Both the position numbers and the translations under genes were made by a program. A stretch of DNA of 64,000 nucleotides, taken from a virus. Location of the stretch: positions 30,888-94,887 of IMG/VR virus record IMGVR_UViG_3300036893_000033. One strand, given 5' to 3'. Of the stretch, positions 15,493 to 46,719 are shown one piece after another (positions within the stretch are counted from its first letter, which is position 1; each line of letters opens with the position of its first letter). The notes below the pieces were generated by a model that saw only the letters and a list, made by a program, of their open reading frames with translations, was not told the DNA's origin and did not search any database.

Positions 15493-15981
15493 ATGAGTAA
15501 CAGCGTAAAGCGCTCCGTAACTAAGATCCTCGCCGCGCTGGCCGCATGCGTGGCCGTGGGCTACGTCATGGCGCAGACAACCTCCCCGCGCCCGGTCAAC
15601 AACGGCAGTCTTCAGTCGCGGCAGTTTGTAGTCACGAACCTCTCGCTGTGTACTTCAGCTAAGCCGTGCTATCCGACCGTGGCCGGAAATCCCAACCAGA
15701 AAGACACCGGGGACGTGTACTTCGGCCAGGCACTGAATAACGTTGCCTCCGCTGGGCAGGTAGTGGTCGGGACGGGAGCCTTCACGCTCGTCATAACCGA
15801 CGGCAATGGAACTGTCTGGATCAGCGCCCCGCAGACGGCGGCGGTGAGCGGCACGATCATGAATTCACTGGACAGCATGCACGGACTTTACATGCAGGGC
15901 GGTTTTACGGTTTACTGTTCGGACTCAGCGAGTGGCGCAAACTGCGCTGCCGGGCTTTTGCAGATCCAATACCAACGATAA
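15493..15981 (+). CDS. Signal-peptide protein in the neck module
   Basis: KRSVTKILAALAACVAVGYVMA|Q. Confidence 0.65.
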   Translation: MSNSVKRSVTKILAALAACVAVGYVMAQTTSPRPVNNGSLQSRQFVVTNLSLCTSAKPCYPTVAGNPNQKDTGDVYFGQALNNVASAGQVVVGTGAFTLVITDGNGTVWISAPQTAAVSGTIMNSLDSMHGLYMQGGFTVYCSDSASGANCAAGLLQIQYQR

Positions 15982-26097: not shown

Positions 26098-27906
26098 ATG
26101 AAGTCTTCCGCCTCTCCCCAGCTAATCGCCTTTCTGAACCAGCCGAACCTGAAGTTCTATGGCGCGGACATCTACGAGTTCGTCCTCCAGAACACCACCA
26201 GCGTCCAGTATGCGATCACGGGGATCACGCAGGCTACCACAGGCGTCGTCTCCTACTCCGGCAGCGCCCCTGTCGCGGTCGGCAGTAAAGTCTATTTCAA
26301 CTACGTTGCGGGCATGACGCAAATCAATATGCTCACGGGCACCGTACTCACCACCGGATCAGGCACGTTCACAGTGGACATCGCCACCAATGTGTTCAAC
26401 GCCTACGTCTCCGGCGGCACGTTCGCGGTCCTGCCTGTCTTCCGCTGCTCCACCTTCGACCGCCCAATCCTGTACAACGGCGATTACTACCCGGTGGCGC
26501 GGGCGGCGGTCAACCAGTTGTACGCCGTGACCGGCATCTCCCAGGCCACGCTGGCAGTCGTGGATATCACCAAAAACCCGTTCAGCGTCGGCGACTCCAT
26601 GATCTTCGAGTCTGTCGGGGGCATGACGGAGATCAACGGGATGCAGGGGTACGTGGTCGCCCGCGATCCGGCGACCTGCACGATTACGATAGACACCACG
26701 TCCTTCGGAGCCTACGCCTCAGGCGGCACGGCGCTGATGCTCTCCGTCCCCGCCATGACGCGCTCGAAGCTGTCCCAGGCGGTCGGATTGAAGGCCAGCA
26801 AGGCGGATATCACGCTTCAGGCGACCCCCGACGCGCTCATCGCGGGACAGCCCATGCTTACGGCTATCGCACAGGGGGCGCTCGACAACGCTCAGGTTAC
26901 GATCCGGCGCTGTTTTATGACCTACGGGGACGTTCACTACAACGACGGCCAGCTGAACGGCCCAGCGATCTGCAATCTGACCGGGTCTCCGTTCGGGACG
27001 GGCGATGGCACGATCATCTGGTTTGCGGGCAACGTCGGAGCGATCACGAAGGTCGAAGCGCTCAAGGCCGAAATGGAAGTTTGGGATCTGATCTACCTCC
27101 TGAACCGGCCAACACCCAAGAATACCCTTGGACCGGGGTGCTGGCATCAGTTGTTTGATGAAGGATGCGGGATCAGTCCCGGTGGTGGGTTCGGTGGCGT
27201 CAACTGGACACAGACGGGGGGGACGATCACGAGCGCGACGACCCCAGGGGTACAGGCGTTCTCAACGAACATCGCTGTGGGTGCGCCACCACCGCCACCA
27301 CCAGCGCCAGTGTTTTCCCCAACAAATGGCATAAACGGCGGCATTAAGACCCTTCCAGGAAACTTCTATTATGCTGTCCTGACCTACGTATCGACAATTG
27401 GCGGGGAGACGCTGGCGTCACCTGTGTCGGTATCGATGTTCCTTGACCCTGGGTATGTCCCCAGGATTCAGCCTCCACCAGATCCAGGCAACGCTGTCGG
27501 CTGGAACGTCTATGTTGGCACTGAACCGGGAGCGGAGAACCTTCAGAACGGCGCTGTAATCCCTTTCAGCGGCGCGGGCAGCGGGCCATGGACATCCCCC
27601 AACGTCGGCATCAGCTACAACGTGGAGACCCCGCCCGTATTCCCCGGCGCGGGGTACTGGTCGCAGGGGGTTATCACGTTCACCAGCGGCGTCCTGAACG
27701 GGATCTCAGCGGTGGTCGATACGTCTGACGACGCCACCGGGTTTATGACTTTGCGGGTGCCTTTGATTATTGCGCCTACAGTCGGGACTAGTTTTTCGGT
27801 GCAATGTAACTGTGTGAAAACTTACTACAGTTGTAGTTACAAATTTGGGAACACGATCCACCTCGCGGCTGTGCCGTATACACCAACCCCAGAGCAGGCT
27901 TTTTAA
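26098..27906 (+). CDS. Baseplate hub protein (DUF2163/GTA-like) with inserted domains
   Basis: F.G.VG, PGCWHQLFDEGCG, G.ITFTSG.LNG and C.KT..SC..KFGN motifs. Confidence 0.82.
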   Translation: MKSSASPQLIAFLNQPNLKFYGADIYEFVLQNTTSVQYAITGITQATTGVVSYSGSAPVAVGSKVYFNYVAGMTQINMLTGTVLTTGSGTFTVDIATNVFNAYVSGGTFAVLPVFRCSTFDRPILYNGDYYPVARAAVNQLYAVTGISQATLAVVDITKNPFSVGDSMIFESVGGMTEINGMQGYVVARDPATCTITIDTTSFGAYASGGTALMLSVPAMTRSKLSQAVGLKASKADITLQATPDALIAGQPMLTAIAQGALDNAQVTIRRCFMTYGDVHYNDGQLNGPAICNLTGSPFGTGDGTIIWFAGNVGAITKVEALKAEMEVWDLIYLLNRPTPKNTLGPGCWHQLFDEGCGISPGGGFGGVNWTQTGGTITSATTPGVQAFSTNIAVGAPPPPPPAPVFSPTNGINGGIKTLPGNFYYAVLTYVSTIGGETLASPVSVSMFLDPGYVPRIQPPPDPGNAVGWNVYVGTEPGAENLQNGAVIPFSGAGSGPWTSPNVGISYNVETPPVFPGAGYWSQGVITFTSGVLNGISAVVDTSDDATGFMTLRVPLIIAPTVGTSFSVQCNCVKTYYSCSYKFGNTIHLAAVPYTPTPEQAF

Positions 27907-28774: not shown

Positions 28775-29158
28775 ATGAACGTTAGCCGAAGGGGATTATT
28801 CACCTCAGCAGTAGTCGCCGCACTGGCAGGCCTGAAGACGCCGTGTTTTTGGGCATACGATCCCATGACCCCCACTAAACCCCCGGTGGCCACAGAATGC
28901 GGCATAGCGACACAAAACATAACATCGGAGAGCGCGCCGTATCTGCTAAACCACAACCGTTGCCTGATTCCCTGGCCATCAGACGTTCTTGGCTGCCCGC
29001 CCCCGTATTGCATCACGATAAGCAAGGTAATGACATTCCCCGCAACGGGCACGCTCAGCTACGTTACGGCTGACGGAAACCACCACACCGAACCGCTCTG
29101 CTTTCACCCAATTGTGTCTGTAGATGCGGTATGGTGCGACGGCAAGAGGACCGCATGA
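28775..29158 (+). CDS. Cys-rich protein with twin-arginine motif
   Basis: MNVSRRGLFTSAVVAALAGL. Confidence 0.6.
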   Translation: MNVSRRGLFTSAVVAALAGLKTPCFWAYDPMTPTKPPVATECGIATQNITSESAPYLLNHNRCLIPWPSDVLGCPPPYCITISKVMTFPATGTLSYVTADGNHHTEPLCFHPIVSVDAVWCDGKRTA

Positions 29159-29673: not shown

Positions 29674-29725
29674 GCGCGGAAGTGGACCATGGTGGCGGAT
29701 CAGTCCGGGAGTTAAAATAGCAAAC

Positions 29726-30196
29726 ATGGAAGTCAAACGCAGATCTTTTTTCTCCGCGCTTATCGCGCCGATTGTCGGGCTGTTTACAGGTGACCGGGTT
29801 GAGGCAAAGATGGTGGAACTCAGGGGCAATGGCCATGAGTTTCCCGCCGACGTGTCGGTTGCCGAACCATCCGTCCGCGACCTGTTCACCTTTAACGGCT
29901 GGAGCGCTATCAACCCCAGGCGATGCTATAAATGCGGAGAGCCTCACCGAGACGCCTTCACACTCTATGCGTTTACCTCCGTCACGCCGCCAGCGCCGCC
30001 GCCAGCTTTGGGAAGAAACGTTGAGTCTGCGTTTGCGCTCATGCCTATCGACGAAACAAGGCTCGCTGAGTTCATCGCACTCGGAAAATCGATAGGCTTC
30101 TATCCGCAGAGCATGGACATTACCCGCTCATGGGACAAGTACGCAATGGTCACGTTGGCATTTTCACAGGGGCCAGACCCGCGCGTCAAGCTGTGA
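29726..30196 (+). CDS. Hypothetical protein with twin-arginine motif
   Basis: MEVKRRSFFSALIAPIVGL; TAAAAT 7 nt upstream of the ATG. Confidence 0.6.
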   Translation: MEVKRRSFFSALIAPIVGLFTGDRVEAKMVELRGNGHEFPADVSVAEPSVRDLFTFNGWSAINPRRCYKCGEPHRDAFTLYAFTSVTPPAPPPALGRNVESAFALMPIDETRLAEFIALGKSIGFYPQSMDITRSWDKYAMVTLAFSQGPDPRVKL

Positions 30197-30607: not shown

Positions 30608-33600
30608 GTGTCTTTATTTGGCAGTTCCGGCCCGCCCCCGATAGCTTCCTTCCAGAATACGCAGCCTTTTGGCGCGTACCCGGTCCAGCAAAGCTTGCGT
30701 GGGCAGGCTTTACAGATCGCTATTGGCACCCCAAGAGTCACTGGCGGCGTCGGGTGGATTGGGGACTGGCATACCATACCGGGCAGTAGCGGCAGCAGCA
30801 AGGTCGGTAAGGGGTCGGGCGGTGGCAAGGGCGCGGTTGATGTCCTGTACGTCGCCTCATTCGCAATTTTTATCTGCCAGGGTGGCCCGAACCCAAGCTC
30901 ATACGGCACGGTCTGGCGCGACCGCAGCATCTATGTCCCGACCAACTCCCAATCTCCGATCCCGCTGTACTTTTCCACTGGCCTCCGTGGCCAGGACCCC
31001 ACTCTAAACACCGTCCTCTCGGCTGGCGGCCAGTTCGGGCCATACCCGGCCAATCAGATCCTCGGCTACAGCGAAATGACGATTGCCTGGTACAAGGATG
31101 CCAACCTCGGCAGTTCCGGCGCGATCTCCAACTACTCATACGAAATCTTCGGCCAGGCCACGTACGCGGGGACCGTTACGGTCTCCGGCACCTCGGTAAC
31201 CGCCAACGCCGGGTGCCAGAGTTTCACCGGCACCATCGGCTTCCCGTCCATGATCGAGTTAACGGGAACGATCACGCTCGACGGCGTGGTCTGCCCGGTG
31301 GCCTCAGTTAACTCCGGTACCTCAATAACGCTCGTGTCCTCAGCCACCTCGGGCGCTACGGTGCCATTCGCCGCCGTCCTGTCCCCCGATGCGCTGGTCA
31401 CCGAGGCCATATTCTTTCTGTTAACGGACTTCAATTGCGCTCACTTCCCGTATGCCAGTATCGGGAGCATGCAGGCCCCGTACGGGGTCGTTAACGTATC
31501 GCTGACGGTGGTCAACTGGGTATCCGGGGACAAGTTTGGCGGTCTTGTCGTGGGCACCAACATCGCCATATACCGCGCACAGTACGTCATCGCGACCATC
31601 GTCTCCGATACGCAATTGACCCTCACCACCACGGTCGCTGGCGGTTATCTGTACAACGTGCTCTTCTTCGGATGCGGCGGCGTCACGAACTACTGCCTCG
31701 CCGCCGGACTCGGCATCTCCCCCATCATCGCCAACCAGGACACGTACTCAAGATACCTGGCAGAGTGGTTTCTGGTCGGGAACATGGAGATGTTTTCGAG
31801 CGAAGGCATCCTCAAGTTTGCCACCTACGCGGATAGTCTGATGACCGGAAACGGCGTCACCTTCGTGCCGAATCTGACCCCCGTCTACAGCCTCAGCCTG
31901 GACTCTTTCATAGCGCCACAAGGCCAGGCTCCGGTGGTATTCTCCCGCACGGCCCCACGCGATATCAACAACCGCCTTGTACTGCAATATAACAACAGGG
32001 GCAATCAGTATAACCCCGAGATCATGGAAGACGAGGACGCCTGGTCGATTCAGTACCAGGTCGGGCGGCGTAACACCGGGGCGGTCATCTCCCTGCCTTG
32101 CATTTGTGAGGCTACCGTCGCGCAGTCGGTTCTCAGCACGCAACTCAAGCGCAACGTCTACATGGTCCGCAAGGTCGCCTTCACGCTGGGGTGGGCGTAC
32201 AGCATCCTGGAGCCGATGGACCTGGTGGACCTGCCCGAGCAGTATCCGTCAACCGGTTTCTGCACGGCACGTATTCTTACCATAGAAGAGGACGAGAACG
32301 GCAATCTGGCCATGACCGCCGAGGTACTGCCGTTCCCGATACTGACACCATCGCTCTACCAGAAGGCCAGCGCCGGTGGCTTCACTGCCGGGTTCACCGC
32401 ATTGCCGGGGGCGACGAATGTGCCCGTTTTTCTGGAGTTAACGCCGCAAATGTCATCTGCCGTAACAGCAACTTCATTCATCCTCGCCATCGCGCTGTCG
32501 GGCGGCCCGAACTGGGGTGGCGCTAATGTCTTTGTGTCAACCGATGGCGGAGGCTCTTACGATGCCATCGGCGCGCAAACGATTAACGCCAACGTGGGAT
32601 ATCTGACATCCGGCCTCGCCGCCGTGGCCAATACGAATGTTCCCGATACGACGAATACCCTGAGCATGAATCTTCAGGAGTCGCTCGGGGATTTGAGTAG
32701 TTTTACGCAATCCCAGTGCGACAACAATGTCTCGCTGGCCTTGATCGACCAGGAGATAGTCAGCTGGAAGACGGCCACGCTGACCGGATCGAACGCCTTC
32801 GACCTGACCTACCTGCGCCGGGGAGTGTTCGGGACGCCCTGCACGGCCCACTCTTCGGGCGCCCCGTTTGCGGATTTCAGCAATAACGCCGCCAGCGCTT
32901 TCCAGTTGACGTATTCGCCAGCCGGGGCATCGGGAAACTCGCCGACCGGTTTTCGGGTTGGCCAGACCCTGCATTTCAAGTTTCCGGCGTTCAATATGGC
33001 CGGTCAGCAGGCGCAAGCGCTTTCCGATGCCGTGGATTATGGCTATACCCTGACCGCGCCGTCCGTGCGTGCGCCGTTGAGCCTGAAGCCTTATTCGCAG
33101 CAGTATTTTTTCGCCCCCTCCGGTTATGCTTTTACGATGGCCCAGGTTGAATCGGGCAACGCCGTCGCCATCGAAGGCACGCCGCCGGTAAACTCTTTCT
33201 CGCCGGCTGTTGCTGCGCCGACGATTGACTTCACCGCGACACTTACGGGTGGCCATTCTCCGAACTGGATCGCTCCGAATGGCCTATACGTAGCTCAGGT
33301 TTTCGCCATCGATTCCAATGGACTATACAGCACAGGGTCGCATCTCTGCGAGTTTACAATTACAGGCAGCGGGTATTGGGCAACCTTCAACGTCACATTC
33401 CCGTCAGGCACTTCCGGGTACGAAGTTTTTATCGGGCCGAGCTTCGACAATCTGGTGGGGCAGGGAAAGCAGGCAGGAGCACCGACTTCGATAACGATTC
33501 AACGGTATAACTCTGAGGGATACGGCCCTCCCGATCCACAGGCGACCAACTTCCACGCACAGGGTAAACAGGTCATCCATGGCGGCATCGCCGCAACCAA

Positions 33601-34879
33601 CGTGGTGTCCTCAACGGCTTCCACTGTGGTTGTTAATTGCCCGTCCGCCCCCTCATCGGGTGAATTCGCGGGACGCTTCCTCATTCTGGTCAGCAAGGCC
33701 GGACTGCCGGCCACGCAGCAGTATGCGATTCAGCCGATTATTGGAAACGACACCGGAACGCCCACATGCACTTTGAACGTGATCAGTTCGACAGGATTGC
33801 TTTATGGCGCTGGTGATCTTGTTTTGATCTCCACGCTGTCGAGCGCCGCGACGGCCACCAGTATTTCCGATGCCGGTCTGGTGAGCCCGTATGCTCCGTA
33901 TGGACTGGGAACGGCAATAGCAACCGCGACTGCCGGGAGCGGAGCAACTACGCTGACCGTGACCGTGAGTTCGGGAGCGATTGCGATTGGCCAGTACATT
34001 ACGTCTCCCGGATATCTGATTTCAGGGACGAAAATAACAACACTCAGCGGGACCGGGCCTTACACGGTCGGCATTTCATCGGCTACTCTCCAGGTGATGA
34101 GCAGCACGTCCGTTTGCGTCGCCAACAGCAACGAGAAAGGCAACCTGCTTCGGGTTCTTTACGATCCAACCGGGACGGCAAGCCCCGCCGATCCTCCCGT
34201 TACGATAACGGACATCACGAATACAGGATGGACCAATACGCCGTGGAAGAATATTCCCGGAACCGGCACGATTTTTATCGAAGAAGAGCCGACATGGAGA
34301 ACCCAAATCGACACAACGGCTGCGATTAACTCAGTGGCTCCGACCACGACATCTACGAATGCCGTTCCGCTGGTTAACCTTCCCGTAGCGAACCTTGAGG
34401 GATTCGTTGCGCTAATCGAGTTGCTCGGCGCCAATTCAAACGGCCTGTATTCGACCGAGCTGGGCGACGGCCTCCGTATGATTTACATCGTGCCGCCGCC
34501 GGATGGCGGGGCTCCATCGCCGAACTATATCGTGCCGGTAGTCGGAGGCGTAGCGACACCCGACGCATCCAAGGGGCCGAATATTCTCATTCTCACCCCG
34601 ACAACCGGAAACGTGACCGTCGTTCAGCCGATCAACTACGGTACCGTCGCCGGTACGGACACGCCGTGGAGCCTGGAAACGCAGGAAGACCCGACCGGGA
34701 CGACGGGGGGATGGGTGGCCACGCTCGACGCTACGTACTTCACCCTGGCCAACCAGATCACGAATACGGCGACCTCGGTTAACAACACCGGTTGCGTCTT
34801 GCAGTTGAGCACCAACTCATCCGGCAATACGCAAGAGACCAGTCAGCGGGTCAGTGACCAGCCAATCGCATCTTTATGA
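30608..34879 (+). CDS. Tail tip/central fibre protein (GTA-like)
   Basis: GTPRV.G.V.W, LEPMDLV, WGGANVFVSTDG, YLRRGVFGT and FKFPAFN motifs. Confidence 0.85.
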   Translation: MSLFGSSGPPPIASFQNTQPFGAYPVQQSLRGQALQIAIGTPRVTGGVGWIGDWHTIPGSSGSSKVGKGSGGGKGAVDVLYVASFAIFICQGGPNPSSYGTVWRDRSIYVPTNSQSPIPLYFSTGLRGQDPTLNTVLSAGGQFGPYPANQILGYSEMTIAWYKDANLGSSGAISNYSYEIFGQATYAGTVTVSGTSVTANAGCQSFTGTIGFPSMIELTGTITLDGVVCPVASVNSGTSITLVSSATSGATVPFAAVLSPDALVTEAIFFLLTDFNCAHFPYASIGSMQAPYGVVNVSLTVVNWVSGDKFGGLVVGTNIAIYRAQYVIATIVSDTQLTLTTTVAGGYLYNVLFFGCGGVTNYCLAAGLGISPIIANQDTYSRYLAEWFLVGNMEMFSSEGILKFATYADSLMTGNGVTFVPNLTPVYSLSLDSFIAPQGQAPVVFSRTAPRDINNRLVLQYNNRGNQYNPEIMEDEDAWSIQYQVGRRNTGAVISLPCICEATVAQSVLSTQLKRNVYMVRKVAFTLGWAYSILEPMDLVDLPEQYPSTGFCTARILTIEEDENGNLAMTAEVLPFPILTPSLYQKASAGGFTAGFTALPGATNVPVFLELTPQMSSAVTATSFILAIALSGGPNWGGANVFVSTDGGGSYDAIGAQTINANVGYLTSGLAAVANTNVPDTTNTLSMNLQESLGDLSSFTQSQCDNNVSLALIDQEIVSWKTATLTGSNAFDLTYLRRGVFGTPCTAHSSGAPFADFSNNAASAFQLTYSPAGASGNSPTGFRVGQTLHFKFPAFNMAGQQAQALSDAVDYGYTLTAPSVRAPLSLKPYSQQYFFAPSGYAFTMAQVESGNAVAIEGTPPVNSFSPAVAAPTIDFTATLTGGHSPNWIAPNGLYVAQVFAIDSNGLYSTGSHLCEFTITGSGYWATFNVTFPSGTSGYEVFIGPSFDNLVGQGKQAGAPTSITIQRYNSEGYGPPDPQATNFHAQGKQVIHGGIAATNVVSSTASTVVVNCPSAPSSGEFAGRFLILVSKAGLPATQQYAIQPIIGNDTGTPTCTLNVISSTGLLYGAGDLVLISTLSSAATATSISDAGLVSPYAPYGLGTAIATATAGSGATTLTVTVSSGAIAIGQYITSPGYLISGTKITTLSGTGPYTVGISSATLQVMSSTSVCVANSNEKGNLLRVLYDPTGTASPADPPVTITDITNTGWTNTPWKNIPGTGTIFIEEEPTWRTQIDTTAAINSVAPTTTSTNAVPLVNLPVANLEGFVALIELLGANSNGLYSTELGDGLRMIYIVPPPDGGAPSPNYIVPVVGGVATPDASKGPNILILTPTTGNVTVVQPINYGTVAGTDTPWSLETQEDPTGTTGGWVATLDATYFTLANQITNTATSVNNTGCVLQLSTNSSGNTQETSQRVSDQPIASL

Positions 34880-37800
34880 GAAAGATAATCACCATCGCTT
34901 TATTTTGCTCGGCGTATCCGGCCTGTTTCGCGCAGACGGCATCCCCTCCGGTCCTTTACGCCGGGGGTCAGCTCACGGGTCCGGTGTACTATGCGCCGCC
35001 ACTGTCGATCACGTCGCTCGGGCTTGCGTATCCGTTTGAACGGCTCAACGACGCTACCAACTGCACTGTGGCATACACGGGAGGTAACGCAGCCAGTCAC
35101 GTTTATCAGGCGCGCGTTCAGACCAGCGGAACTCCCGATACGATTGCATGGCAGAAGGACGGCGGTTCGTGGTCGTCCGGCATACCCATATCCCTTGCAT
35201 CGTTTGCCAACTCACACGCTTACTCGGTTGGTCAGGTGGTAGTCGGATCGGGCCATTCGCAACTGGTCACCGCTTCCGTGTCGCCATATACCAGTCAGTC
35301 GTCCGGCACGCCATCCTGGAGCACCTCGGGCGGTTCGGTGGTTAGCGCAAACGTGACCTTCCGGGATATGGGCGCGCGGCTGTGTATCCCCCTGACGGAC
35401 GGAGTAATCATCGGGTTCGGCGCGTCCACGGGACACAGCGCGACATGGAACCCGCAGTGGGCCAATGCTACACCGTATGGCGCTGGCGGTGTTGTAGCTG
35501 TCAGCGGATACATTCAGGTGGTGACGGCCTGCTCCCCGAGCTGCCCGCAGAGCAGCCAGGCATCGGGAAGTCCGTCATGGAATTCGACTCTCCACGGTAC
35601 GACATCGGACAATTCCGGTGCGCTGACGTGGACCAATGAGGGTCCGACAACCGATGGAATGAACAACCCCGATTCGTGGACCTTCTCTGCCACTATAAGC
35701 GGCACCTCCGTTAACACTACCCACAACGCGCCGGGTACCAATACGCTCTTTACGACGGTACAGCAGCGTCTCGGAGACACACTCGTGTCGTCCGTTTATC
35801 CGGTAGATCCGACCGGGCAGAACGATTCAACGGCGGGACTGAATGCGCTGGCCGCGCAAGCCGCCCTGATAGGAAATTGCGGGGAGGTTCCCTCGGGGTG
35901 GTACAAGGTCACAGGCCTGACGCTGATATCCGCGTGCCTTGAGGCTGAGGCGTCTGGCCAGGTATTTATCGAAGGCACCGTGGCCAACACCCCCGTCATC
36001 CGAATGATGGGATATCGTTCGAAGATTAAGGGCTTCCAGGTTTCGAAATCCCCAGGGCTTGCAGGCGTATCCCTGGTGCAGGTCTACGCTACGCTGACCT
36101 CTTCGCAGCCTGGAGTGACCGCAAACACGCAGGACACCGTAATCGAGGATGTGCTCCTGCAAGGGAGCGCCAATGACCACGTTGCGGCGGGCCTTGAGAT
36201 CACCGCCGATCAGGGTGCTGAGGTACAGTTCACCTGGGGGACTCGCGTCCATATCCAGGGCGCGGATCGTGGCTGGTGGACACACAGCACGGCAGCGTCT
36301 TACGCGACCGGCCATGACAACAACACCAATAATTGTACCGATTGTATAATTGAGCAATCCAGCGTGTGTCTTAGTATTCAAGGAAGTGGGGAGAGCGTCT
36401 ATAACAACTTGCAGACCAACGGGTGTAATGCGTTTCAGTCCGTTGGCACGGTGACGGTCAGCAACGGATCGTATACGGTGACCGCAAACGCCCCATGCTC
36501 GACGTCTCCTGTTGTGTCCCCGGTATTTGTTGGCATTCCGGCCGGTACGCCGATTTACTTTCCCGCACAGACCGGGCAGAACCAACAAGCCTTCGTGGCC
36601 TCGGTGACGGATTACTGCCACATCCAGCTGACGGCTCCTTTTGCGGGATCTTCCGACTCCAACGCCGCTTACGGCGTGGCTCTGGCTCCGGTCGTAATTG
36701 AGCCTGTATGGGTCCCTGGTGGTGCCATCACATCAACAAATAACCAGGTGCAAATCGGTGGCGGCGAGAGTTCCGCTCCGTTGGTATTTATCGCCCCTGG
36801 CGCGTGCGGTAATCAGATCACCACGACCGCTGTGGCCAGTTCCTATGGCGTGACTGGCTTCAACGTGATGGACCTCTCAGGATGCAGCCATTTTTCCTTG
36901 CCGAGATTTAATGTCTGTCCGGGGGTCGATTCGCTCGGTCAGCCGACTTTCGCGATTGGTTACTGTGCATTAAGTGAGATAGACGCAACTCGCGGGCAGT
37001 GGGCCACGTTCCAGATTTTCCCCGTGACGGGCGGCGGTGCTGCAACCGGTGGACAGCCGGACTTGTTTCGGATAGACGGTAATTACAAGGGCGGCTACTC
37101 TCCGGTCGGAGTGAATGCGGCATCTCTCGATTACAACAATACCGGACAGGAGTGGCGTGCGTCCACGACCTACACTTATGGCGAGGTCTATGTGATCGAT
37201 GCGGCGGGCCACGCCCAACAGATAGTGAGCGGGTATTACTGCGTGTCGGGCACTACACAGCCAACCTGGAACGACACCGGGGGTACGACAACAGATGGAA
37301 CATGCCTCGCAATAGATCGGGGCTACGGGGCACCCACCGGCCTTGGCGGTACATATCCGGGCGGCGGACTGTATGTGAACACGGACGCAAAGTGGACCGA
37401 TGGCACCATTCGCGCCGACACGAACCGCACGGATGCGCCGATCACCGGTTCAGTGGATTTTCTGTTCCAGGGCCAGGACTATGCCCGTATCCGTTCGCAA
37501 AATAACTCCGGCGGGAATTACACGGATATCGAATTCCTGTCTCTGGTGAATGTGGCTCCCGCATACCCTTCGCCGGTGAGCGTGATCGCCCGCTTGCGCG
37601 GACAGGGCGGCCTGCAACTGACGCCAGCCACTCCGGGTTGCAACGCGGGCGACCCTTATGACATCTGGCCCACCGCTTACGTAGCCGGATCGCCGGGAAC
37701 GGCGTCAACTCTGCAAGTATGCCTGCAAAATGAAGCCGGGACGTACAAGATGTATACACTGGCCAGCGGCGCGGCGATCCCGCCGCCCGTGGGATCTCCT

Positions 37801-38997
37801 CTTTACGTTGACCTGCCAGCTAACAACACCGGTCAATCGCAGGTTATTTTTTCCTACCAAAACGCAACATATTTTGGTGGGCAAATTATCACTCAGTACA
37901 TAAATCCAGCATCGAGCTCCCTAAGCTATATGGAATTAGACACCGAGAGTGGTGCAAGTACTTTCATTCCATCCCTTATCCTGCACGACGGTGGAGCGCA
38001 GCTTATGCCGGATCTGTCCGGCGGTGGCTTGTGCCGCGCTGGCATCTGGGTACCTGGTAACCCGGTCAGCACGACGGTTGGCACCGAAGGGACGTTGAAC
38101 TACGTCCAGCCATCCGGCGGCAATCCGGGCACAATAGAGTTCTGCGGCGGCAACGGATCGGGCGGCGCCGCGGAGTACGGCATCGCGAGTCTGCCTAATC
38201 TGATAACGGCCAGCGCAACCCTGACGCTCGGCGCGGCGACCGAAATCGATCTCAAGATTGGCGGCTCAGTCCTCACCAGCCTGACGGCATCGGCGTTCAC
38301 CGTTGGCGTGCCCGCGTATTTTCAGGCCGCGATTTACGGTGCAGGTTCTTCCGGCACTCCGATTGTTGACACGAGCAATAATTTTGTAGGCAAGGAATTC
38401 ACGTCTACAAACTCAGGCACTAACCTGGATTTCCAAACCCAATCGGGCTTTGCCTGGAACGGCCAGGGGGACATCGGGGTTCGGTCGCTTATTGTAGGCT
38501 CCGGTTCAGGGGTATTCGCGGTGTCCAACACCGGCGCAATCACCGGATCTCATATCCAGAGCGTCGGAACGGGCGACAGTCCGTCGTTTACCGCGCTGAG
38601 CATTACGGGCACCAGCACGACTGCCTTAAACGTTGCCTCAGGCGGGTTTACTGCCAATGGCTCATCGGGGGCCGTCAGCGGCACTACGGGCTACATGTCC
38701 GGGAACTGGACAGCGGGCAATCTGATCGCGACTTCGGGCGTGTCAGGGACTTCCGGCACGTTTACGACTCTCACGTTTACCGGGTCGCCCGCCACTGCTG
38801 GGCCATACATCGCCGGAAGCGGGATTACAATCGGAGCCGGAGGCACCAACAATATCGCCGTGACGACTCCGTACCCAGGAAGCACGGCTGGTACTCCATT
38901 CACCAATCTTTTGAGCTGCACGACCGTCACCGGCGGGGTTCCGTCTGGATGCACGATACTCACGGGGCCGTTTCCTTATGTAGCTTCAATACCGTAG
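34876..38997 (+). CDS. Tail spike/fibre-like protein (CBM-like repeats plus beta-helix) with N-terminal signal peptide
   Basis: MRKIITIALFCSAYPACFA|Q; three (W/F)....Y..G..V...G repeats; DPTGQNDSTA beta-helix entry motif. Confidence 0.7.
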   Translation: MRKIITIALFCSAYPACFAQTASPPVLYAGGQLTGPVYYAPPLSITSLGLAYPFERLNDATNCTVAYTGGNAASHVYQARVQTSGTPDTIAWQKDGGSWSSGIPISLASFANSHAYSVGQVVVGSGHSQLVTASVSPYTSQSSGTPSWSTSGGSVVSANVTFRDMGARLCIPLTDGVIIGFGASTGHSATWNPQWANATPYGAGGVVAVSGYIQVVTACSPSCPQSSQASGSPSWNSTLHGTTSDNSGALTWTNEGPTTDGMNNPDSWTFSATISGTSVNTTHNAPGTNTLFTTVQQRLGDTLVSSVYPVDPTGQNDSTAGLNALAAQAALIGNCGEVPSGWYKVTGLTLISACLEAEASGQVFIEGTVANTPVIRMMGYRSKIKGFQVSKSPGLAGVSLVQVYATLTSSQPGVTANTQDTVIEDVLLQGSANDHVAAGLEITADQGAEVQFTWGTRVHIQGADRGWWTHSTAASYATGHDNNTNNCTDCIIEQSSVCLSIQGSGESVYNNLQTNGCNAFQSVGTVTVSNGSYTVTANAPCSTSPVVSPVFVGIPAGTPIYFPAQTGQNQQAFVASVTDYCHIQLTAPFAGSSDSNAAYGVALAPVVIEPVWVPGGAITSTNNQVQIGGGESSAPLVFIAPGACGNQITTTAVASSYGVTGFNVMDLSGCSHFSLPRFNVCPGVDSLGQPTFAIGYCALSEIDATRGQWATFQIFPVTGGGAATGGQPDLFRIDGNYKGGYSPVGVNAASLDYNNTGQEWRASTTYTYGEVYVIDAAGHAQQIVSGYYCVSGTTQPTWNDTGGTTTDGTCLAIDRGYGAPTGLGGTYPGGGLYVNTDAKWTDGTIRADTNRTDAPITGSVDFLFQGQDYARIRSQNNSGGNYTDIEFLSLVNVAPAYPSPVSVIARLRGQGGLQLTPATPGCNAGDPYDIWPTAYVAGSPGTASTLQVCLQNEAGTYKMYTLASGAAIPPPVGSPLYVDLPANNTGQSQVIFSYQNATYFGGQIITQYINPASSSLSYMELDTESGASTFIPSLILHDGGAQLMPDLSGGGLCRAGIWVPGNPVSTTVGTEGTLNYVQPSGGNPGTIEFCGGNGSGGAAEYGIASLPNLITASATLTLGAATEIDLKIGGSVLTSLTASAFTVGVPAYFQAAIYGAGSSGTPIVDTSNNFVGKEFTSTNSGTNLDFQTQSGFAWNGQGDIGVRSLIVGSGSGVFAVSNTGAITGSHIQSVGTGDSPSFTALSITGTSTTALNVASGGFTANGSSGAVSGTTGYMSGNWTAGNLIATSGVSGTSGTFTTLTFTGSPATAGPYIAGSGITIGAGGTNNIAVTTPYPGSTAGTPFTNLLSCTTVTGGVPSGCTILTGPFPYVASIP

Positions 38998-39011
38998 GAG
39001 GTAAAAGAAAG

Positions 39012-39365
39012 ATGGAAAAGTTTAGACAAATGATTGAACGCATAAAAAGATTGATCGGGACTGGTATGCTGATTATCGCAGCCACAAATGCCGAAGATGT
39101 GAAGTCCGTTGAGCTTCACGTCCTGACAGACAAGGATATCGCGACGATCTGGCGGGCGCAGGCGAAGATAGCCAACGCACAGGCCGCGCGCACGGAAGCC
39201 AAGGCGGCATCTGACCGAGCCGACTCTGCCGCGATTGAGGCGCGGGAGGCAATCGAACTCGTCAAACACATCTGCGGCGAGGGGCAGATGTTCGCCGAAG
39301 CGAAGAAGGATGTTTTCGCATGCGTGGCAAGTCCGGCGGCAAGCTCGGCACCGGAGAAAAAGTGA
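39012..39365 (+). CDS. Small coiled-coil protein (possible fibre chaperone, possible signal peptide)
   Basis: AGGAGGT RBS; follows the fibre gene. Confidence 0.6.
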   Translation: MEKFRQMIERIKRLIGTGMLIIAATNAEDVKSVELHVLTDKDIATIWRAQAKIANAQAARTEAKAASDRADSAAIEAREAIELVKHICGEGQMFAEAKKDVFACVASPAASSAPEKK

Positions 39366-39425
39366 GGACCGTTCGCGGGCTTTAAGACGCCGGAGCGTTC
39401 CCGTTTTTCTGATACAATATCCTTC

Positions 39426-39507
39426 GTGAGTCGCCCTCGACCAGCGGCCACACACACAAGCTGTGGCGCATCCACTTTTCTTTGTTCTGGGTGCGCCCCG
39501 ATTTTTT
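39426..39507 (+). ncRNA. Candidate two-hairpin small RNA A
   Basis: Extended -10 TGaTACAAT (39410-39418); 5' hairpin, CACACACA linker, GGCGCATCCA/TGGGTGCGCC stem, T tract. Confidence 0.4.
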
Positions 39508-39619
39508 GATTTCCGGGGCATGGCAACCCGCCAGGCGGCTAAGGTAGCGCACCCGTCTCCGCAAACGCTATAATGGCCAGCGAGGCGTTACTAATGTTCT
39601 TTACGTCAGAGGTTGAGCA

Positions 39620-40936
39620 GTGAGGTGGCTGGCCGGCCTTTTGGCTGTCGGCAGCCTTTTGGCTGTCGTTCTTTGGTCGCAGCCTCCGAGTATTCCTCCG
39701 GGGAGTACTGGGGCAAGCGGCCCTGGATTCGCAAGCCGAGTCGTTTATTTCGCCGCGCCGGGATCGCAGACAATCACGCACAACCTCGGGCTGGCATCAC
39801 CGTATGTGCCGGGGTTTAGTGCCGTGACAACGCTTTCCGGATGTCAATTCTCGGCGTGCGGGAATATCTCAAGCTATGCGGCCAATTCCTTTTCCATAAC
39901 GTGTGCGGGCGCGTGCAATGGGGTCGAATGGCTGATCCCGTATGCGGCCAGCACCCAGCCGACAGCCGATTTCTACCTGATCGTGGGCGCGGCGTCAGCT
40001 ACGGTTTTTCAAAACACGCCGGTTCCAGCGACGGCGACTGTCACCGTGGGGGCTCTCTTTGGATATTCGGGAGTGGTAACGCTCTCGTGTACGAGCACTA
40101 CGGTGTCCTGTGTGTTCTCTCCCGCGACAATCACCGGGTCGGGGACCAGCACAGTCTCAATCACGCCGAACGGGACAGCCTTAAACTCGACTTCGGGAAC
40201 GGCAAATGTCGTGACGATCTCCGGCACGGACGGATCGCTGACGCACACGGTCAACGGATCGGTGACTGTATGGACCGGACCCGTGCAGCAGTGGAAAATG
40301 AACGAAGGATCAAGCCCGATGGCCGATTCGAGCGGTCACACGAACAATCTTACGAACACGAATGCGACTTATGGCAGCGTCTCCGGGTTGCTGTCGAATA
40401 CGCTGAAATTCAATGGCACGAACACGACATCGGCGGCGGCGAATTACACGAATACGAACTTCACCGGATCGACTCCGTTTTCGGTCTGCGGCTGGGCAAA
40501 TGAGACTTCGTACACAAGCCAGCTCGAAATGCTGCTGGGTAACGTATCGTCCTCCGGCCAGGGATGGGTTGTTTTCCTACAGGGCGGCGGCGGGAACCGG
40601 CTGACGTTTTCCTTGAGGGTCACTGGCGGCGATGCGAACGAGAACTTCAATTTTATTCCCACCACGGGGACGGCGTTTCAATTCTGTGTCGCCACGGACG
40701 GCACGGAAAAGGTAGCGGGCATGACTGCTTATGCCAACGGCGTATCTTCGGGCGCATATAATACGGTACAGGACAACCTGTCCGGTTCTATTGCCAGTGC
40801 CACGCCGGTGTACCTGGGTTACTACCAGACCGCAACTACCCTTCCGCTTACCGGCGGCATCGCTGACATTCGCGTCTACCCATACGCGCTCAGTTCGACG
40901 CAGGTAACCGCGATTTACAGCCAAGGAGTCCAGTGA
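39620..40936 (+). CDS. Ig-like plus LamG/ConA lectin domain protein with signal peptide
   Basis: MRWLAGLLAVGSLLAVVLWS|Q; WKMNEG..ADSSG..LKFNG..FSVCGW..GGIADIRVY. Confidence 0.8.
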   Translation: MRWLAGLLAVGSLLAVVLWSQPPSIPPGSTGASGPGFASRVVYFAAPGSQTITHNLGLASPYVPGFSAVTTLSGCQFSACGNISSYAANSFSITCAGACNGVEWLIPYAASTQPTADFYLIVGAASATVFQNTPVPATATVTVGALFGYSGVVTLSCTSTTVSCVFSPATITGSGTSTVSITPNGTALNSTSGTANVVTISGTDGSLTHTVNGSVTVWTGPVQQWKMNEGSSPMADSSGHTNNLTNTNATYGSVSGLLSNTLKFNGTNTTSAAANYTNTNFTGSTPFSVCGWANETSYTSQLEMLLGNVSSSGQGWVVFLQGGGGNRLTFSLRVTGGDANENFNFIPTTGTAFQFCVATDGTEKVAGMTAYANGVSSGAYNTVQDNLSGSIASATPVYLGYYQTATTLPLTGGIADIRVYPYALSSTQVTAIYSQGVQ

Positions 40937-42570
40937 TGAAGCGCCTATACGTCCTGCTTTTCTGGTCTGCCGCCGTATCCGCGCAGACGATCACGAACGG
41001 CGCGGGTACGCGCGTGCTGCTCAGTCAGATGGGCGCGCCCGTGGCCGACATCACGGCGGGCTGCAACACCGACACGATGCTGCAAGCCAACGGCAGTGCG
41101 TGTCCGAACGAACTGGCCTACGTCAACGCAGCCTTTGCGGTGGCGACGGCGACGAACCCGGTGCATTTGATTGCCGACTATCCGTTTTTGGTTAATGGTC
41201 CGATCATTATCCCCATAGGCGCGGTCGCCTACCTCGAAGGGCTGGGGATGAACGTGAGTAGCTTTGTGATCGCGAACGGCAGCAACGCCACTCCGATCTG
41301 TACAGACTTTCCAGGGCGAACTGCCGGTGGGCTCACCTGCGGTATCAGTATGGCCGTCGGCACGCCTCCCGCCCAGGTCGGCTCGCTCATTATCCGCGAC
41401 ATCACCGTCAACGGCAATCGGGCCGGTAACAGCACCGGAGACCTGCACTGCGTAACAGCCTGGTGCGCGGGAATTCTCGCCGCTAACCTTGAGTATTTTG
41501 AACTTACTAATGTGCGAATCAAGAACGCTCCGACGTTCGCTGTGTTCACGACTAACGTTGGGACGCAGGAGTATCACAACGTGGAGGTTGACTCTACAAC
41601 GGCATCCGGCTCGAATACGGACGGCATCCACGCAGCGGGGCCGTTTGGCACAATAAATGCTTCGAACATCCGCGTTACCGGGTACGATGACTGCATAGCT
41701 CTTAACCTGCCAGAGGGTTACTCTGGCAGTGGTGGGACCGCACAGTTCACCAACGTAACCTGCAATGGCAATCTTTCGCTGTTGAGAGCCTACGCCTACC
41801 AGAACGCGGGAAACATCTGCGGCTCCTGTACATTGGGTCCGGTGCAAATCAGTAACTTCTTTCTGAATGCTACATCCAACCCATATGCTAATGGTGTAAT
41901 CATCGGCAACGATGCCAATTATTCCAGCACACTGGATCAGGTGCAGTCAATCCAGCTTACAAACGGTATTTTCGTGACTCCTAACAGCTTAGTTACTACG
42001 TTAAACAATGTCGGAACGCTTTCGTTTTCCAACGTTCGGTGGAGCATTACTGGCGGCAATACGGCTAGCTGGCTGGATTTCGGAGCGACCTCGACAATCA
42101 GCAGCTTCCTCTGCGCACCCTGTACGATATACGCCAATGCAGCGTGGAATGGATTCACGCCGCATTGGGGAAGAATAGCCTTGAATTCTACGGTCAAGAG
42201 GATCGAGATGAACGGCACCGCAATTGCTGTCGAGTCCGGCCAGTCTCTTTCGGCGACCGCTTACGGATTCGACATTCAGTCGGGAAGTTCTGTCGGATCT
42301 TTCGTGATGACGGCCATGGACCCTACCTTGAACCCGACTCTTCTCAACGGCAACGAATGGTCGCGGGTCACGAACTTCTACGGCGCGGGCGTTCCCGCGT
42401 ACTACCGCAACACGACGTATGCCAATCTACCTCCAGCGACTTACGTGGGGCTGTCCGCGTCGATCAGCGACGGGACCAGCATCGTGTGGGGCGCGACGGA
42501 AGCGGGCAGCGGATCGAGTTACGCGCAGCTGACCAGCGACGGGACGAACTGGACCGTCACAGGAAAATAG
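40936..42570 (+). CDS. GH28-like beta-helix depolymerase/tail spike with signal peptide
   Basis: MKRLYVLLFWSAAVSA|Q; NTDGIH and GYDDCIAL motifs; C-terminal T.ANLP.A...SDGTNW module. Confidence 0.75.
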   Translation: MKRLYVLLFWSAAVSAQTITNGAGTRVLLSQMGAPVADITAGCNTDTMLQANGSACPNELAYVNAAFAVATATNPVHLIADYPFLVNGPIIIPIGAVAYLEGLGMNVSSFVIANGSNATPICTDFPGRTAGGLTCGISMAVGTPPAQVGSLIIRDITVNGNRAGNSTGDLHCVTAWCAGILAANLEYFELTNVRIKNAPTFAVFTTNVGTQEYHNVEVDSTTASGSNTDGIHAAGPFGTINASNIRVTGYDDCIALNLPEGYSGSGGTAQFTNVTCNGNLSLLRAYAYQNAGNICGSCTLGPVQISNFFLNATSNPYANGVIIGNDANYSSTLDQVQSIQLTNGIFVTPNSLVTTLNNVGTLSFSNVRWSITGGNTASWLDFGATSTISSFLCAPCTIYANAAWNGFTPHWGRIALNSTVKRIEMNGTAIAVESGQSLSATAYGFDIQSGSSVGSFVMTAMDPTLNPTLLNGNEWSRVTNFYGAGVPAYYRNTTYANLPPATYVGLSASISDGTSIVWGATEAGSGSSYAQLTSDGTNWTVTGK

Positions 42571-43964: not shown

Positions 43965-44043
43965 AGTCTGGGCAGGAGTCCCGGAGATCAACCACACACA
44001 TTGGCCCGCGCGGGTACTGACTGACCCGCGCGGGCCGTTTTTT
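43965..44043 (+). ncRNA. Candidate small RNA B ending in a strong intrinsic terminator
   Basis: TTGAAA-N17-TAGGAT promoter; 5' hairpin with CAGGAGT loop; CCACACACA linker; 13-bp stem 44003-44036 plus T tract. Confidence 0.45.
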
Positions 44044-44136
44044 ATGCGGGCAGGAAAGCGCGTGCGACGTACTCAGCCAGACTGTGAGCAGTACCACGGC
44101 ACACGCGCGGCCAGGGATAGGCGTTAAAATAACCAC

Positions 44137-46107: not shown

Positions 46108-46185
46108 CCGCGCGGCATGCGTTAAGTCGAGACCGCCCCATTCGGAGCAATCCGCTTGGGGCATTTTCTGCGTTAAAATAAAACC

Positions 46186-46719
46186 ATGCAACACCCCACG
46201 AGCAACCGCATATCTCTGATCCTTCTGGCCGCTGGCCTTGCCATGGCGGCCATGTACATTTGCTTTTCGCCTCCGATGGCGGTGGCGCAGGGCAATCGCG
46301 TGGGGCCGGAGAGCGCATATCCGCCAGCGTCCGTACCGGGTTTTCCGAACCCAGACGTAACGCAGGAAAATATCAGTTCAACCGTCTGTAGGGCTGGCTG
46401 GACGAAGACGATCCGACCTCCAGGGGCGTACACAAATAAACTCAAGGCCCAGCAGATGGTGGCGCTCCACCTCCCCGGAAAGCCATCCGAATACGAAGAG
46501 GACCATTTTTTGAGCCTGGAAATTTCTGGTCACCCAACGGACCCGCGCAACCTGTGGCCACAAAGCTACAGCGGGCAATACGGAGCGCGGGTCAAAGACC
46601 AGGTAGAGGACAAAATGAAGCGCGAACTGTGCGCTGGAACGATGACCCTAAAGCAGGTTCAGGATTGCATAATCTCCGACTGGATCGCGTGTGGCAGGGC
46701 GCACGGTGCCATCAAATAA
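46186..46719 (+). CDS. Secreted HNH-type (His-Me finger) nuclease-like protein
   Basis: Signal peptide ending AVA|Q; YEEDHFLSLEISG...RNLWPQ...KDQVE. Confidence 0.7.
   Translation: MQHPTSNRISLILLAAGLAMAAMYICFSPPMAVAQGNRVGPESAYPPASVPGFPNPDVTQENISSTVCRAGWTKTIRPPGAYTNKLKAQQMVALHLPGKPSEYEEDHFLSLEISGHPTDPRNLWPQSYSGQYGARVKDQVEDKMKRELCAGTMTLKQVQDCIISDWIACGRAHGAIK

Follow-up and report, generated by a model that had tools for sequence, protein, structure and literature searches.

Fiber- and tailspike-like proteins with predicted Gln-exposing Sec leaders behind the tail-tip gene of an uncultured soil phage

The contig of virus record IMGVR_UViG_3300036893_000033 (94,887 bp, G+C content of 58%) derives from an uncultured soil phage. 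We analyzed bases 30888 to 94887 of this contig, a stretch of 64,000 nucleotides (nt) hereafter called the window, in which a J-like tail-tip gene is followed by a cluster of four genes in the order g1, an open reading frame (ORF) of 117 amino acids (aa), g2, and g3 (Table 1; positions are those of the window unless given as contig positions). The products of the three large genes start with leaders resembling Sec signal peptides that would be cleaved before a glutamine (Gln). The window also encodes a large terminase, a portal-MuF fusion, a head-tail adaptor, and a tail set of the gene transfer agent type, with DUF2460, a phiJL001 Gp84_N/BR0599 hub protein, and an NlpC/P60 peptidase. No close relative was found among cultured phage genomes, the top terminase match being 36% identical, and g1, g3, and ORF 29726 had no match there at all. 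The J-like tip protein has no leader and carries a C-terminal extension of about 600 aa that could serve as the receptor-binding part on its own. The strong hairpin downstream of g3, the only strong terminator found in a promoter and terminator scan, is likely the end of the transcription unit carrying g1 to g3.

Table 1. Leader-bearing genes and associated features of the window.
Feature	Position	Strand	Length	Characteristics
Neck-module protein (ORF 15493)	15493..15981	+	162 aa	Leader codons 1-27 (15493-15573) ending VMA↓QT; AAGGAG ribosome-binding site
Tail-module ORF 28775	28775..29158	+	127 aa	Twin-arginine-like leader SRRGLF plus hydrophobic stretch; 7 Cys
Tail-module ORF 29726	29726..30196	+	156 aa	Twin-arginine-like leader KRRSFF plus hydrophobic stretch
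J-like tail-tip/host-specificity protein	30608..34879	+	1423 aa	Phage-tail_3, E 2.7e-22; Rcc01698_C, E 5.3e-15; PHROG tail proteins
g1	34876..38997	+	1373 aa	Leader codons 1-19 (34876-34932) ending CFA↓QT; mature protein 24 Cys
Small ORF	39012..39365	+	117 aa	Hydrophobic leader or signal anchor; helical Ala/Glu/Lys-rich body; 2 Cys
Gap before g2	39366..39619	+	254 bp	Perfect TATAAT at 39569-39574, without a good -35
g2	39620..40936	+	438 aa	Leader codons 1-20 (39620-39679) ending LWS↓QP
g3	40936..42570	+	544 aa	Leader codons 1-16 (40936-40983) ending VSA↓QT; beta-helix glycosidase-like
Intrinsic-terminator-like hairpin	44002..44037	+		Strong; 14 pairs plus T run
ORF 46186	46186..46719	+	177 aa	Long leader ending AVA↓QG; adjoins putative lysis region
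Arrows mark predicted cleavage sites.

Substrates of Sec and signal peptidase I (SPI) are expected to have a positive n-region, an uncharged h-region of about 8 to 16 residues, and a small amino acid at both -3 and -1. Signal peptides were called using a strict home-made heuristic based on n-, h-, and c-regions, with the shuffled first 60 residues of each protein as the control; an earlier, too permissive heuristic was dropped. Eight of the 38 window genes passed, against 0.46 expected from shuffled N-termini: the four genes of the cluster, including the 117-aa ORF, the neck-module gene, ORF 46186, and ORFs 28775 and 29726. All four genes of the cluster encode a leader with a basic start, a hydrophobic core free of charges, and a small-x-small end; the cleavage contexts are CFA↓Q in g1, LWS↓Q in g2, VSA↓Q in g3, and VMA↓Q in the neck protein. 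Together with ORF 46186, these four Gln-flanked leaders make up the five clear leaders of the window, and Gln occupies the +1 position in all five (0.03 genes expected from the shuffled control). The leaders quoted in a preliminary description of this DNA for the three large genes were reproduced exactly in our translations, as was that of the neck gene. The Cys richness noted there holds by count: the four mature proteins counted would contain 24, 8, 12, and 4 Cys residues, and these even numbers fit disulfide pairing but do not prove it.

The starts of these genes are supported by their upstream sequences. The ATG of g1 overlaps the stop codon of the tip gene as ATGA, in line with the coupling described previously. 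The 117-aa ORF has AGGAGG 8 nt upstream, the GTG of g2 is preceded by GAGG, and the ATG of g3 lies 7 nt downstream of AAGGAG and overlaps the stop codon of g2. The public call for g2 (P0011) is a form of 241 aa that begins at an internal GTG and misses the leader together with two conserved domains. Considering that the upstream half is conserved as protein in the homologs P0013 (94% coverage) and L002, the long form is the gene.

Of 18 relatives belonging to three families, 17 retain both a leader and Gln at +1, across 34 to 50% identity, even though the leader sequences themselves diverge. The g3 family comprises six metagenomic members with 34 to 91% identity and a seventh copy on locus L003; a hydrophobic leader is present in all six full-length members and in the L003 copy, and the mature protein, which aligns from its N-terminus onward, would start with QT in the six and with QA in L003. 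In the pair formed by g3 and P0004 (91% identical), only about a quarter of the leader positions agree, whereas the first mature residues are the same. In the g2 family, leader and Gln are found in P0013 and in a 971-aa ORF of L002 (ending SG↓QS), and P0012 has a leader without Gln. In the neck family, each of the seven sequences has a leader, and neither Ala27 nor Gln28 varies among them. The persistence of leaders in homologs despite sequence drift, with Gln at +1, indicates that the starts are real and suggests that cleavage is under selection, and we conclude that the leaders are probably adapted to the secretion machinery of the host. For the neck protein as well as g2 and g3, Sec export followed by cleavage before Gln appears highly probable; for g1, the probability is a little lower.

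The near-identical sibling contig departs from this pattern. In IMGVR_UViG_3300048502_000088 (96 kb; L001, 9952-10031), one extra base in the g3 leader shifts the ATG into a reading frame other than that of the mature protein, for which the first usable start, a GTG, comes after the leader. This indel could reflect faulty assembly of a hypervariable stretch or a genuine loss of export; if real, export of g3 is dispensable. Along with the shortened public call for g2, it is what could be adduced for leaders that are non-functional, that is, mis-called starts, uncleaved anchors, or chance hydrophobic N-termini. We consider this very improbable given the ribosome-binding sites and coupling at the long starts, the protein conservation upstream of the shortened g2 call, the retention of leader and Gln in three diverged families, and the excess over shuffled controls. 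The central observation of the preliminary description, the presence of leaders on these proteins, stands: the leaders fit the n-, h-, and c-region rules of our heuristic, homologs carry them, and the true starts do not lie downstream of the hydrophobic stretch.

The AlphaFold2 (AF2) model of g3 is a right-handed beta-helix (predicted template modeling score 0.77), with residues 1 to 22 below 50 in the predicted local distance difference test (pLDDT). Foldseek retrieved GH28 polygalacturonases and phage tailspikes about equally, the tailspikes with a probability of 1.0. Like GH28 enzymes (PF00295), g3 has the NTD and DD motifs at the expected place of a beta-helix, here as NTDGIH and YDDCIAL, and one Asp is invariant in the family. 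Unlike these enzymes, it shows no GHG or RIK motif by eye and carries an extra C-terminal block of about 110 aa. The window protein has no Pfam match at E <=0.01 and stays below the PF00295 cut-off of 22.9 bits, which its homologs P0009 (26.3 bits) and P0005 (24.8 bits) pass. Secretion is the rule for GH28 enzymes of cellular organisms. The C-terminal block, ending in DGTNWTVTGK, is the most conserved part of the family and is poorly predicted in the monomer model; the previously proposed SDGTNW module corresponds to its end. By eye, this C-terminus does not resemble a sorting domain of the type IX secretion system, a reading that we rejected.

Tailspike depolymerases such as those of HK620, CBA120 (TSP3), and LKA1 (gp49) also resemble g3 in shape, being beta-helices of similar size that are likewise encoded after tail-tip genes. 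Tailspikes are not known to have a signal peptide; their assembly takes place in the cytoplasm, and a particle-binding domain forms their N-terminal part. In contrast, g3 has a predicted cleavable leader, its mature form has only about 50 residues ahead of the helix, and its conserved part is C-terminal. No particle-binding domain was recognized in g3 by Pfam and PHROG searches.

Mature g2 would consist of a Cys-rich beta domain containing a THNLG motif, an immunoglobulin (Ig)-like domain, and a C-terminal LamG lectin domain. Residues 218 to 438 match Laminin_G_3 (PF13385) with E 7e-11 and 42.9 bits (cut-off 27.6), and homologs score 48 to 58 bits. The Cys-rich beta domain is shared with longer relatives that additionally contain collagen repeats and match tail-fiber PHROGs: the 971-aa ORF of L002 matches phrog_5073, phrog_366, phrog_1806, and Pfam Collagen, and an upstream ORF of L003 does likewise. 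None of g1 to g3 of the window matched a PHROG, so that fiber-type modules of this kind are seen in the relatives only. The start/stop overlap of the g2-g3 type is kept in the window, L002, and L003; in L002, the g2-g3-like pair follows a divergent non-tail gene.

The LamG domain has a history different from that of the rest of g2. The window and sibling proteins are about 99% identical over 240 residues and then, by eye, only about 60% identical across LamG, and the LamG of the sibling shares about 98% identity with its counterpart in the collagen-bearing 971-aa protein of L002, which is distant elsewhere (window 40330-40880). LamG has thus been exchanged between lineages as a cassette, a pattern seen in phage receptor-binding proteins.

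For g1, no sequence match was found in Pfam, PHROG, or PDB, and its fiber- or spike-like nature is presumed. Its language-model look-alikes in the Atlas, mostly viral fiber, CBM5/12, and GH28-related clusters at 0.86 to 0.90, serve as leads only. A comparison with the g3 profile (hhalign) gave only E 0.055, at the helix cap, and g1 otherwise showed no similarity to g3 or to the J-like protein. A receptor-binding domain common to the J-like protein, g1, and g3, which would argue for receptor masking, is therefore not seen. Of the domain labels assigned in the preliminary description, the beta-helix and SDGTNW of g3 and the LamG of g2 hold, whereas the CBM-like and beta-helix labels for g1 found no confirmation in our searches. 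The g1 leader has no lipobox, and we rejected a lipoprotein reading. The adjacent 117-aa ORF belongs to no Pfam family and is possibly an envelope chaperone or a spanin-like protein: its position suggests a fiber assembly factor, and its shape an i-spanin-like periplasmic protein.

The mature neck protein is modeled as a jelly-roll with four conserved Cys residues (AF2, pLDDT 81) and has six relatives at 29 to 49% identity. Its fold matches tie at Z 6 to 7 and include nucleoplasmin, phage cement proteins, Ena pilins, PBSX XepA (6.1), and carbohydrate-binding modules; with such a tie, we name no family. Its look-alikes in the Atlas are viral.

The distribution of the cluster is patchy. Prophage-like regions in one Acidobacteriota genome and in one genome from the same phylum as the Rhodothermales genome surveyed below encode capsid proteins 34 to 35% identical to that of the phage and have the same order of tail genes, but in each the tail genes stop at the J-like gene, and no leader-bearing genes follow. 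The cluster is thus accessory rather than core, and the tail can do without it. Scans of viral contigs with g3, neck, and g2 alignments recovered only one near-identical sibling contig, and a genome-contig scan with the g3 family recovered nothing. The families were absent from the bacterial genomes searched, which comprised the genome-contig scan and 4 + 401 Acidobacteriota genomes; the search of the 401 included the neck family.

Such an accessory distribution, together with the GH28 affinity of the g3 family, would fit morons or auxiliary metabolic genes (AMGs). In that case, the cluster would consist of genes for secreted polysaccharide hydrolases and lectins that benefit the host, for instance through the degradation of pectin-like polymers of plants or Sphagnum or through surface remodeling in a lysogen, and are unrelated to the mechanics of infection. 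Viral glycoside hydrolases from soil are often read in this way (PMC6172770, PMC11924767), and g3, too, is a carbohydrate-active gene on a soil virus with a probable Acidobacteria-type host, as in the peat and soil cases (PMC6172770). The TATAAT in the gap before g2, which the promoter scan did not call, may provide g2 and g3 with a promoter of their own, and the position of the L002 pair behind a non-tail gene points the same way. However, g1 has no upstream gap and hence no room for a promoter of its own, the families were absent from the bacterial genomes searched, the relatives have a collagen and tail-fiber architecture, and the window g3 falls short of the GH28 threshold. Unlike the soil AMGs, g3 sits in a tail module, coupled to fiber-like genes, with export signals and cassette swapping nearby. 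These features point to host-surface glycans rather than nutrition as the target, the LamG swap in particular being better suited to an arms race, and we regard a host-benefit role as quite improbable.

Exposure of Gln upon signal peptide cleavage has been described as the Bacteroidetes-specific "Q-rule", with subsequent formation of pyroglutamate by glutaminyl cyclase (PMC5837995, PMC10653852). Sequence comparisons suggest that the host in this case is probably a diderm member of Acidobacteriota, not Bacteroidota. The nearest relatives of the IS1595-type transposase of the phage (contig 11106-12050, minus strand, outside the window) come from metagenome-assembled genomes (MAGs) of peat and bog Acidobacteriota, at 70 to 76%, followed by alphaproteobacterial copies at 60 to 69%. 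A Shine-Dalgarno core precedes 17 of 34 window genes, compared with a background of 10%, and the G+C content of 58% also speaks against a Bacteroidota phage. The capsid search was non-discriminating, with relatives equally distant in Acidobacteriota and Bacteroidota.

In a small, partly manual survey of +1 residues (400 kb from each of three genomes), the signal peptides judged credible had A↓Q at an intermediate frequency in an Edaphobacter MAG (about 9 of 17, many of them with A↓QT exactly as in the phage), between those of an alphaproteobacterium (about 3 of 16) and a Rhodothermales MAG (about 15 of 19); fully automatic counts gave a weaker signal (21% for Edaphobacter, 17% for the alphaproteobacterium, and 45% for Rhodothermales). 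The type-2 glutaminyl cyclase family PF05096, the one searched for, was present in two of five Acidobacteriota MAGs. Q-rule-like exposure of Gln may extend beyond Bacteroidota, and post-cleavage Gln could help to predict the hosts of uncultured phages.

What the proteins would do after export has two main readings. We tentatively prefer, and give about an even chance to the statement as a whole, that they are free exported factors, derived from fiber and spike modules, that bind or cut glycans in the periplasm and after lysis. According to this proposal, g1, g2, g3, and probably the 117-aa ORF would be expressed late, together with the tail genes, and be composed of tail-fiber and tailspike modules, namely, a beta-helix glycosidase, a LamG lectin with Ig-like domains, and, in relatives, collagen-type stalks. 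The proteins, which in this proposal are now handled by the Sec translocon and SPI of the host, would cross the inner membrane of a diderm cell, be cleaved to expose Gln-Thr, and fold with disulfides in the periplasm. There, and after lysis, they would act as free factors and not as parts of the tail assembled in the cytoplasm, their likely role being to strip or mask exopolysaccharide, O-antigen, or a receptor layer, so that the progeny could escape the matrix and would not be lost on debris or already infected cells. Export would provide oxidative folding, a protected N-terminus, and access to periplasmic and surface polysaccharides before and at lysis. In favor of a free role are the short stretch ahead of the helix in mature g3, in which no particle-binding domain was recognized, the absence of the cluster from relatives sharing the capsid and tail core, the C-terminal extension of the J-like protein as a possible receptor-binding part, and, if real, the indel in the g3 leader of the sibling.

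Several points weigh against a free role. The translational coupling of g1 to the tip gene is what is often seen for assembly partners, and the g2-g3 overlap, conserved in three lineages, resembles a structural pair when viewed together with the tail-fiber PHROGs and collagen repeats that the long g2 relative matches. Furthermore, Sec reaches only the periplasm, and lysis frees cytoplasmic enzymes in any case, so that export needs another rationale, for which folding, stability, or periplasmic substrates are the candidates. Finally, the g1 leader has no cross-lineage support, since the sole homolog found is 98% identical, and the case for it comes from its own features and from the coupling to the tip gene.

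The same position, coupling, conserved pair, and cassette swap fit just as well with exported virion appendages, which the preliminary description offered next to free depolymerases or lectins. The proteins would be matured in the periplasm, with disulfides and pyroglutamate, and would dock on tails and necks assembled in the cytoplasm once holin lesions or lysis mix the compartments. The genes lie where a tail module encodes receptor-binding proteins, g1 overlaps the tip gene by ATGA, LamG is exchanged as in receptor-binding proteins, and a leader-bearing relative has tail-fiber and collagen matches. The conserved, poorly modeled C-terminal block of g3 would be a candidate docking or trimerization domain, the neck module encodes a predicted exported jelly-roll whose tied fold matches include cement and decoration proteins of phages, and viral clusters predominate among the Atlas look-alikes. 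Against this, no docking domain and no similarity to the J-like protein were found, the cluster is missing from relatives that have this tail core, the g3 leader of the sibling is frameshifted, and docking after lysis would have to occur within a short time window and against dilution. Tailed virions are normally not built outside the cytoplasm, and we know of no precedent for exported virion appendages in tailed phages. We judge this reading unlikely; if it held, virion assembly would be partly extracytoplasmic. Its boldest form, a two-compartment assembly of a lineage of Caudoviricetes in which a lectin-tipped fiber, one or two beta-helix spikes, and the neck jelly-roll are Sec substrates that are oxidatively folded and N-terminally capped in the periplasm and dock only at the holin or lysis step, seems to us slightly more doubtful still.

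Phage-encoded Sec substrates as such are known, among them lysis proteins, exclusion lipoproteins, outer-membrane morons, and Q-rule proteins. The last of these have been reported from Porphyromonas gingivalis phages, in which five genes encode Sec/SPI leaders predicted to expose Gln, interpreted as an adaptation to host secretion (Matrishin et al. 2023, PMC10367356). The previous designation of the window genes as an undescribed system is therefore too strong, phage-encoded, Sec-exported, Gln-exposing proteins having been described in that work (PMC10367356). The two sets share phage-coded leaders of this type but differ in kind: the P. gingivalis genes are of unknown function and reside in Bacteroidota prophages, whereas those described here encode large fiber- and tailspike-type proteins and a neck protein. 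Precedents for Sec-exported products of late or tail-adjacent phage genes also include PBSX XepA, signal-peptide and signal-anchor-release endolysins, lambda Lom and Bor, and T5 Llp; the fold tie of XepA to the neck protein (Z 6.1) is not specific. These are lysis, outer-membrane, or exclusion-lipoprotein products, and none is known to be a glycan enzyme or lectin of the fiber or spike type. Our literature searches found no description of a conserved set of fiber- or tailspike-type proteins with export signals at the receptor-binding position, nor of further exported products in neck and tail modules beside such a set.

Annotation pipelines and host-range models assume that the receptor-binding proteins and depolymerases of tailed phages are cytoplasmic. 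If the free role is correct, periplasm-matured glycan enzymes and lectins would form a separate arm of infection, serving matrix escape, receptor destruction, or exclusion; if the proteins are appendages, part of the virion would be finished outside the cytoplasm. Either would change the interpretation of such genes in viromes from soil, in which they currently tend to be classed as AMGs of carbon cycling or as tail fibers.

Other genes of the window have leaders as well. ORFs 28775 and 29726 flank the NlpC/P60 tail gene, and their twin-arginine-like leaders suggest that they may be products of the tail module exported by twin-arginine translocation. A GTTAAAATA-type motif occurs about 5 to 7 nt before the starts of genes 29726, 44137, and 46186 (29706-29725, 44117-44136, and 46166-46185), which encode hydrophobic N-termini and have no Shine-Dalgarno motif. 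The tail hub protein (26098-27906) combines two E1_FCCH-like domains with phiJL001 Gp84_N and BR0599.

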